Shown here piece by piece: positions 1,542-3,500 of a stretch of 64,000 nucleotides of DNA; position 1 is the stretch's first letter; the number at the start of each line of letters is the position of its first letter. A program made the position numbers and the translations under genes. This DNA comes from a virus. Lineage: Duplodnaviria; Heunggongvirae; Uroviricota; Caudoviricetes. The stretch lies in IMG/VR virus record IMGVR_UViG_2880412407_000011; one strand, written 5' to 3'. A model generated the notes under the pieces. It made no database searches. It had not been told where the DNA came from and was given only the letters and a program-made list of their open reading frames with translations.

Positions 1542-3203
1542 ATGCAGGCAGGTCACCAGAGTGACGCGGATATTTATATTTATGACGAGATTGGTTTCTG
1601 GGGGGTTACGGCGAAGCAGTTTATCAGTGATCTGAATGCACTGGGCGATATCACCCACATTAATCTCCATATTAATTCACCGGGTGGCGATGTCTTTGAA
1701 GGCATCGCCATTTTTAATGCGCTGAAAACACATGGTGCGTCCATTACCGTTTATGTCGACGGTGTGGCGGCGTCAATGGCGTCGGTCATTGCGATGGTGG
1801 GAAACCCGGTCATTATGCCGGAAAACACTTTCATGATGATTCATAAACCATTTGGCTTTACGGGCGGTGATGCGGAGGACATGCGCACCTATGCCGACCT
1901 GCTCGATAAAGTTGAGGCGGTTCTGTTACCCGCTTATGCACAGAAAACCGGGAAAACCACCGATGAAATTGCTGCCATGCTGGCGGATGAGACCTGGATG
2001 TCCGGTGCCGAATGTCTGGCACATGGATTTGCTGATCAGGTAACGCCAGCCGTTAAGGCAATGGCATGTATTCAGTCAAAACGTACAGAGGAATTTAAAA
2101 AGATGCCGGAATCCATTCGAAACATGATTACTCCGCCACGCAACAGTGCTCCACGCGTACAGGATGATGAACCTGCAGCCTCCCGGACGCCAGTGCAGGC
2201 AGCAGCACCCGTGGTGGATGAAAACAGTATCCGTGCGCAGGTACTGGCAGAGCAAAAAGCGCGTGTAAACGGTATTAATGATCTGTTTGCCATGTTTGGC
2301 AGGCGTTATCAGACGCTGCAGGCTCAGTGTCTTGCCGATCCTGAATGTTCGCTGGAGCAGGCCCGCGAAAAGCTGTTGAACGAGATGGGGCGCGAGTCCA
2401 CGCCATCCAATAAAAATACCCCGGCTCATATTTATGCCGGTAACGGTAATTTTGTGGGGGACGGGATCCGCCAGGCGCTGATGGCGCGTGCCGGATTTGA
2501 AAAAACCGAACGTGATAATGTCTACAACGGGATGACCCTGCGTGAATATGCCCGTATGTCACTGACTGAACGGGGTATTGGGGTTTCCAGTTATAACCCG
2601 ATGCAGATGGTCGGTGCGGCGTTCACACACAGTACGTCTGACTTCGGTAATATTCTGCTGGATGTTGCGAACAAAGCCATTCTGCAGGGCTGGGAAGATG
2701 CTCCTGAAACCTATGAACAGTGGACGCGGAAAGGTCAGTTGTCTGATTTTAAAATTGCCCATCGTGTGGGTATGGGGGGCTTCAGTGCTCTGCGTCAGGT
2801 GCGTGAAGGGGCGGAATATAAATACGTCACCACCGGAGATAAACAGGCCACTATTGCACTGGCGACCTATGGCGAGCTGTTCAGTATCACCCGTCAGGCC
2901 ATTATCAATGATGATCTGAATATGCTGACCGATGTCCCGATGAAGCTGGGCCGTGCGGCGAAATCCACCATTGCCGATCTGGTTTATGCCATTCTGACGT
3001 CTAACCCGAAAATCTCCACAGATAATGTAAGTCTGTTCGATAAAGCGAAACATGCAAACGTACTGGAGAGCGCTGCAATGGACGTGGCATCGCTGGATAA
3101 AGCCCGCCAGTTGATGCGCGTTCAGAAAGAGGGGGAGCGTCATCTGAATATTCGTCCTGCGTTCGTACTGGTACCGACGGCGATGGAGTCTGTTGCTAAC
3201 TAG
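1542..3203 (+). CDS. prohead protease (ClpP/S14-like) - scaffold - major capsid fusion protein, ended by an in-frame TAG
   Basis: ATG at 1542 gives MQAGHQSDADIYIYDEIGFWG... with a ClpP-like motif (INSPGGDVFEG); C-terminal half resembles a Mu gpT/HK97-type major capsid; stop TAG at 3201-3203. Confidence 0.7.
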   Translation: MQAGHQSDADIYIYDEIGFWGVTAKQFISDLNALGDITHINLHINSPGGDVFEGIAIFNALKTHGASITVYVDGVAASMASVIAMVGNPVIMPENTFMMIHKPFGFTGGDAEDMRTYADLLDKVEAVLLPAYAQKTGKTTDEIAAMLADETWMSGAECLAHGFADQVTPAVKAMACIQSKRTEEFKKMPESIRNMITPPRNSAPRVQDDEPAASRTPVQAAAPVVDENSIRAQVLAEQKARVNGINDLFAMFGRRYQTLQAQCLADPECSLEQAREKLLNEMGRESTPSNKNTPAHIYAGNGNFVGDGIRQALMARAGFEKTERDNVYNGMTLREYARMSLTERGIGVSSYNPMQMVGAAFTHSTSDFGNILLDVANKAILQGWEDAPETYEQWTRKGQLSDFKIAHRVGMGGFSALRQVREGAEYKYVTTGDKQATIALATYGELFSITRQAIINDDLNMLTDVPMKLGRAAKSTIADLVYAILTSNPKISTDNVSLFDKAKHANVLESAAMDVASLDKARQLMRVQKEGERHLNIRPAFVLVPTAMESVAN

Positions 3204-3500
3204 GTCATTCGCTCTTCAAGTGTCAAGGGGGCTGACATTAACGCCGGTATTATTAACCCGGTGAAAGATTTTGCGACCGTTATTGCAGAGCCTCGTCTTG
3301 ATGATAACAGCCAGACCACCTTCTACCTGGCTGCGTCCAAAGGCTCCGATACGATTGAAGTGGCTTATCTCAACGGTGTGGATACGCCATATATTGATCA
3401 GATGGAGGGCTTCAGTGTGGATGGCGTGACAACGAAAGTGCGTATTGACGCCGGTGTCGCGCCAGTTGATCACCGCGGTCTGGTGAAATGTACGGCGTAA
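3204..3500 (+). other. in-frame open continuation of the capsid ORF downstream of the amber codon (99 codons)
   Basis: Same frame as 1542-3203; no stop for 99 codons; capsid-like C-terminal sequence (TFYLAASKG...VAYLNGV...). Confidence 0.5.

Follow-up and report, generated by a model that had tools for sequence, protein, structure and literature searches.

An amber codon in the protease–capsid fusion gene of a lambdoid prophage remnant of the Escherichia coli O121:H19 lineage

The analyzed DNA, a stretch of 64,000 nucleotides referred to below as the window, begins at the portal gene of a lambdoid prophage. This gene (20–1528, plus strand) is intact according to the list of open reading frames and to the RefSeq annotation of the identical sequence in strain 16-9255. 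Immediately downstream of it lies the gene under study (1473–3500, plus strand), a fusion that joins a ClpP-like prohead protease and a scaffold to the major capsid protein, and which the RefSeq label "internal stop" and the Pfam matches mark as a pseudogene interrupted by an internal amber codon. The fusion gene is placed between the portal gene on one side and DUF2190, head-completion and tail genes on the other. A Rho-independent terminator (3524–3543, plus strand), composed of GGCCC-GTAA-GGGC and a following T run, comes after the gene, and the mEp460 record has a terminator at the corresponding place.

The initial annotation had described an ORF running from 1542 to 3203. Its end at the TAG of 3201–3203 was correct, whereas the start is likely to be GTG 1473 rather than ATG 1542. 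The GTG is situated 5 nt after a strong AGGAGG motif (1462–1467) and is also the start used in RefSeq. Counted from it, the gene has 675 codons and the amber is the 577th; counted from ATG 1542, with which the TAG is in frame, it is codon 554.

The identification of the ORF as a protease–capsid fusion was upheld, as Pfam PF00574 and PF25209 were both found in a single reading frame with head genes as neighbors. The ClpP-type serine protease domain (PF00574, CLP_protease, E = 3e-36 to 4e-36) occupies 1608–2045 on the plus strand, i.e., residues 23–168 counted from ATG 1542. The major capsid domain (Phage_capsid_4, PF25209) corresponds to 2595–3488 on the same strand, or residues 352–649 of the protein repaired at the stop. 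In the repaired protein, the ClpP domain is N-terminal, the capsid domain C-terminal, and a linker joins them. The sequence before the stop matches positions 7–166 of the Phage_capsid_4 profile, so the amber cuts the domain after position ~166 of 262. The E-values for PF25209 were 7e-55 for the intact allele, 6.8e-37 for the truncated part and 1.2e-12 for the tail. The capsid structures of the Mu gpT type (8rkx/8rkc) gave only a weak match (E~2e-4), which spans the stop site.

Direct reading of the window at 3195–3206 gave GCT AAC TAG GTC. Beyond the TAG the frame contains 98 sense codons (3204–3497) and ends with TAA at 3498–3500. The claim that the TAG interrupts a frame open to 3500 was thus borne out by the reading, with a correction to the reported 99 open codons: the figure had included the TAA terminator along with the 98 sense codons. 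The initial annotation had also judged such a continuation improbable by chance and its product similar to a capsid C-terminus. Both statements proved sound: the probability of 98 open codons, computed from the base composition, is ~0.008, and the 98-residue tail alone matches the Phage_capsid_4 profile at positions 171–261 of 262 (E = 1.2e-12). This independent match rules out chance, and the continuation past the TAG is genuine coding sequence. The orphaned 3' coding part (3204–3500, plus strand; 98 codons plus TAA) is still intact, its sole difference from the common allele being a synonymous one at 3215.

When the window was compared with intact alleles, the only difference at the codon was C instead of T at 3201. 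Hence, the amber codon (3201–3203, plus strand) derives from an ancestral CAG (Gln) via a C-to-T transition at 3201, as indicated by both the intact alleles and the homologues. In E. coli 2012C-4221 and phage mEp460 the codon is CAG and the gene is one uninterrupted frame of 652 codons, if counted from the ATG of the mEp460 record, or 675 codons from the RefSeq GTG. The glutamine is kept in homologues at 99.7% (mEp460), 76% (CP-1639), 73% (Salmonella phage Fels-1) and 53% identity, the last being a paralogue. In answer to the question raised in the initial annotation, codon 554 is thus a sense codon, CAG, in the intact homologues. None of the aligned homologues ended at the position corresponding to 3201–3203. 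Two phage genes that seemed to be split, since two features lay under the match (Tritos and 813R6), turned out to be intact, with the second feature being the next gene.

An alternative would be a natural end of the gene at 3203, with 3204–3500 forming a small gene of its own or not coding at all. A 79-aa ORF that begins with GTG (3261–3500) could be taken in its favor, but a single Pfam capsid domain crosses the stop and the intact homologues are all continuous, with Gln at this position. Domain continuity and the homologue alignment rule out a natural terminus with a separate downstream gene, an explanation to which we attach next to no probability. The situation named in the initial annotation as speaking against its proposal, i.e., homologues that terminate here and a downstream frame with no homologue, was not encountered, and its view that the fusion gene bears a nonsense mutation agrees with the conserved Gln codon and with the capsid domain continuing across the stop.

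The closest isolated phages are mEp460, cdtI, Ayreon, Tritos and phi458, to whose head gene the window DNA is 98.6–99.4% identical. The order of ClpP followed by Phage_capsid_4 is common to the window and to lambdoid coliphages of the mEp460, cdtI, Ayreon and Tritos types, as well as to related genes of Stx phages and Fels-1. The gene neighborhood is shared as well: in the coliphages, too, the gene is preceded by the portal gene and followed by a terminator and by DUF2190 and tail genes. Unlike the coliphage genes, the window copy has TAG for CAG at codon 577, lacks the last 98 residues and resides in a remnant instead of a complete phage genome. The gene is a member of the ClpP-protease/major-capsid fusion family by descent and not a functional one, its reading frame being interrupted by the in-frame TAG and flagged as a pseudogene in RefSeq.

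The distribution of the amber allele was analyzed among the complete E. coli genomes. Over positions 1–24692 the window is 100% identical to 16-9255, a strain of E. coli O121:H19 (NZ_CP022407.1, where subtracting 935857 from a record coordinate gives the window position). The status of pseudogene, with the label "internal stop", had already been assigned in RefSeq to the gene of 16-9255, 2002-3211 and 2015C-3107. With a 59-base probe centered on the TAG, an exact match was found in 8 of the 1,815 complete genomes that hold this segment: in 16-9255, FWSEC0006 and GTVSS-020, all labelled O121, and in five CDC isolates whose records give no serotype. Nearly all other genomes differ from the window at 3201 and at the synonymous position 3215, and about 99.5% of the alleles and every phage examined have a sense codon at the site. 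Strain 1EC213 combines CAG with T at 3215, a haplotype that is likely, from this pairing, to be the parental one of the amber allele.

The suggestion that the stop had been mis-called did not stand, as eight further complete assemblies share the T, and so does strain LR-25, discussed below. A sequencing or assembly error at 3201 in an otherwise intact gene has practically no probability, although the window and 16-9255 are not free of discrepancies elsewhere. Over 26–64 kb the two sequences differ by 21 single-base indels, and the five that were inspected all fell in A/T homopolymer runs, so one of the two assemblies must be imperfect in this part. The change at 3201, however, is a substitution and not a homopolymer indel; it lies within the 24,692 bp that are fully identical to 16-9255, and the T is shared by LR-25 and by eight complete genomes that stem from different laboratories and years. 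As nine independent assemblies carry T at 3201, the error was rejected as a candidate, and the exact allele shared by eight complete genomes means that the mutation is real and not an assembly artefact.

The window holds two prophages in tandem: after the end of the first come a Pin-type recombinase gene, ydfK/ynaM and the integrase gene of the second. Where the first prophage ends, a tail-fibre assembly gene is truncated by IS600 (19796–20952). The Pin-type serine recombinase gene (21158–21745) comes after this IS600, then the ydfK/ynaM genes, and the integrase gene of the second prophage is located at about 23128–24423. A 1,310-bp insertion of the IS3 family and of IS629 size (24693–26002) is absent from 16-9255 and directly adjoins an IS600 by which the xis region of the second prophage is interrupted. 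The junction at 24.3–26.7 kb consists of IS sequence and is not spanned in full by any complete genome of the collection, and none of the complete genomes examined was identical to the window beyond 24.7 kb. The segment 26003–64000 differs from 16-9255 by 13 substitutions in addition to the 21 single-base indels, a pattern that would suggest misassembled homopolymers in one of the two sequences, apparently confined to the second lambdoid prophage.

The identical TAG was also found in strain LR-25, isolated from human faeces in Ecuador (NZ_AP027500.1, 1948812–1950839), where it is accompanied by C at 3215. Across the gene, the LR-25 allele differs from the window by ~22 SNPs, the nearest of which lie 232 bp before and 14 bp after the TAG, and LR-25 is the sole carrier of its TAG allele among 1,826 genomes. 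Its prophage adjoins prfC and has a different early region, an intact terminase and, in the 40 kb examined, no other annotated lesion. Judging by the surrounding polymorphisms, the TAG of LR-25 would most simply be an independent mutation, a recurrence in a separate lineage, while a very short conversion tract retains some small probability as its source.

The mutated position falls in a Dcm site (3200–3204), which reads CTAGG in the window and CCAGG in the intact alleles. The affected base, 3201, is the inner C of CCWGG, the Dcm target, and the change is C-to-T, just as deamination of the methylated base would produce; deamination is hence the most likely origin of the amber. In lacI, the classic hotspots of amber mutations fall on the second C of CCAGG and are attributed to 5-methylcytosine deamination (Coulondre, Miller, Farabaugh and Gilbert 1978, reviewed in PMC12606429). 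The resulting T:G mismatch in CTWGG/CCWGG is a substrate of Vsr very-short-patch repair, by which such mutations are lowered but not abolished (PMC2715241). Of 5,426 complete E. coli genomes, 5,358 contain the dcm-vsr genes. Our case resembles the lacI hotspots in the G:C to A:T change at the second C of CCAGG and in the conversion of CAG to TAG. The lacI sites, in contrast, come from a selected mutant collection, whereas here natural genomes are concerned, with two occurrences at one of four possible sites and with methylation predicted from the sequence.

A stop codon may be created in this gene by 171 single-base routes, 40 of them transitions and 4 at Dcm deamination targets. The occurrence of an ordinary replication-error transition in a coincidental Dcm context, with the TAG of LR-25 acquired via recombination and not via a second mutation, has to be weighed at this point. 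In its favor, there are the 40 transition routes, prophage late regions of this type are mosaic and recombine freely, and at the three further Dcm sites of the gene where deamination would give an amber (1534, 1996 and 2472) no such allele was found in the ~1,500–1,800 genomes searched. Nevertheless, the mutation struck precisely the methylatable C of CCAGG, a kind of target that accounts for just 4 of the 171 routes, and a transfer into LR-25, which differs 14 bp downstream, 232 bp upstream and at ~20 other sites of the gene, would need a very short conversion tract. We regard this combination of replication error and recombination as unlikely. The hotspot reading itself relies on one site and two occurrences, given that no mutated allele was seen at 1534, 1996 and 2472; the recurrence was found by looking at the 3201 site only, and the events are too few for the null result at three sites to decide. 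Altogether, a 5-methylcytosine deamination hotspot is plausible and fits textbook knowledge, and it is not statistically established here.

The initial annotation had also allowed for suppression of the stop. If the amber were read through, owing to a suppressor tRNA of the host or phage or to programmed readthrough, the full-length capsid protein would still be made. The conversion of CAG to TAG is exactly what a supE-type tRNA-Gln(CUA) would compensate for, restoring the wild-type residue, and the downstream frame is still undamaged. Such a tRNA was found in 155 complete E. coli genomes, the query being a tRNA-Gln(CUA) sequence that matched C600 and DH5alpha exactly. However, among the matches listed (60 of 155), names and sources look like those of K-12 laboratory strains or their derivatives, and the list includes none of the eight carriers of the window allele. 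A tRNA search of the 64,000 nt of the window detected no suppressor tRNA. Only CAT and TCT anticodons were found, in a pair of genes in the second prophage (42203–42278 and 42379–42455), assigned by ARAGORN to tRNA-Met(CAT), which RefSeq calls tRNA-Ile, and to tRNA-Arg(TCT); neither is a suppressor.

Programmed readthrough would call for a conserved stop, and the stop is conserved neither among the alleles nor among the phages, as CAG occupies the site in ~99.5% of the former and in all of the latter that were checked. Moreover, the lineage tolerates an IS600 in the 3' part of the gene, and the prophage is devoid of an intact terminase, which leaves nothing for selection to maintain. The non-conserved stop together with the other prophage lesions makes functional readthrough very unlikely, and the proposal of a suppressed stop has, as far as tested, found no backing in the window tRNAs or in the conservation of the codon.

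These other lesions were read in 16-9255 and in 2002-3211, a 2002 isolate, as the window itself starts at the portal gene. In both strains, the terminase large-subunit gene, located just upstream of the window, is split by an integrative element of ~10 kb. Further upstream in 16-9255, the integrase is truncated beside ISEc8, an IS3-family element interrupts the exonuclease gene and the early region is mostly missing; ydfR has an internal stop in this strain. In 2015C-3107, a strain of the O121 lineage with the TAG allele of the window, IS600 (3153–4427 of the locus in that strain) is inserted within the orphaned 3' part of the capsid pseudogene, after window position 3324. This insertion is further decay that followed the amber mutation.

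The element that splits terL (NZ_CP022407.1, 924355–934549) encodes a tyrosine integrase, HTH, BRO-N, Icd-like, primase and SSB proteins, and also its own ClpP/major-capsid fusion of 629 aa, 51% identical to that of the prophage. The terL::integrase junction was detected in 86 of the 5,426 complete E. coli genomes; the carriers belong to diverse lineages, and the junction sequences form two classes (98–100% and ~86–87% identity). The element looks like a representative of a satellite-like family that site-specifically targets the terL of this prophage type.

The remnant resembles cryptic prophages of the Qin type in its flanking genes (ydfU, ydfT, cspB/F/I, essQ, rrrQ, ydfK and a Pin-type recombinase) and in its multiple IS insertions, truncations and internal stops. 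It differs from them in that its late module, comprising head and tail genes, is almost complete and of the mEp460 type. The lesions fit the neutral decay of a Qin-type remnant still bearing an mEp460-type late module. No usable literature description of the O121:H19 prophages was found.

In our interpretation, to which we assign a probability of about 0.88, a recent C-to-T amber mutation hit the head gene of an mEp460/cdtI-type lambdoid prophage remnant in the O121:H19 lineage, through deamination at a Dcm site and as a part of neutral decay. The stop is a genuine, recent and lineage-specific nonsense mutation in the capsid gene; that it is recent follows from the single synonymous difference within the downstream 98 codons. 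The T at 3201 would have arisen by spontaneous deamination of 5-methylcytosine that escaped Vsr very-short-patch repair, turning the conserved glutamine CAG into an amber TAG. Residue 576 (553 in the numbering from ATG 1542) should then be the last of a product that retains the protease and scaffold parts and lacks the last 98 residues, roughly the last third of the capsid domain (profile positions 167–262). With this third missing, the truncated protein would probably be unable to assemble a head.

The initial annotation had supposed that the nonsense mutation leaves the prophage defective for head assembly. The nonsense mutation stands, whereas the defectiveness of the prophage does not come from it: the amber is not its cause, as the lesions of the terminase, the integrase and the early region were seen in 16-9255/2002-3211. 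In a prophage already non-viable owing to the split terminase, truncated integrase and deleted early region, the gene would be free to decay.

A different possibility is that the truncated protein is retained because it poisons, in a dominant-negative manner, the head assembly of related superinfecting phages and so serves superinfection exclusion, or that the amber makes head production dependent on a suppressor tRNA. The one observation in its favor is the recurrence of the mutation in the O121 lineage and in LR-25. The IS600 of 2015C-3107 is no argument against a selected truncation, since only the untranslated 3' part is affected. We consider either form of such selection highly improbable and retain neutral decay as the preferred explanation.

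The lesion was already known, being flagged as a pseudogene in RefSeq, and is of an ordinary, textbook type. It adds one more inactivating lesion to a cryptic prophage of the Shiga-toxin-producing O121:H19 lineage, and as such it matters little. The amber may be used as a lineage marker, as it is carried by 8 of ~1,820 genomes with the gene and those of them with an assigned serogroup are O121. It also offers a clean natural example of a CAG-to-TAG amber at a Dcm site, apparently recurrent in an unrelated strain. Finally, it illustrates that where a prophage gene stays open for some 99 codons past a stop, a pseudogene of recent origin is the simplest explanation.
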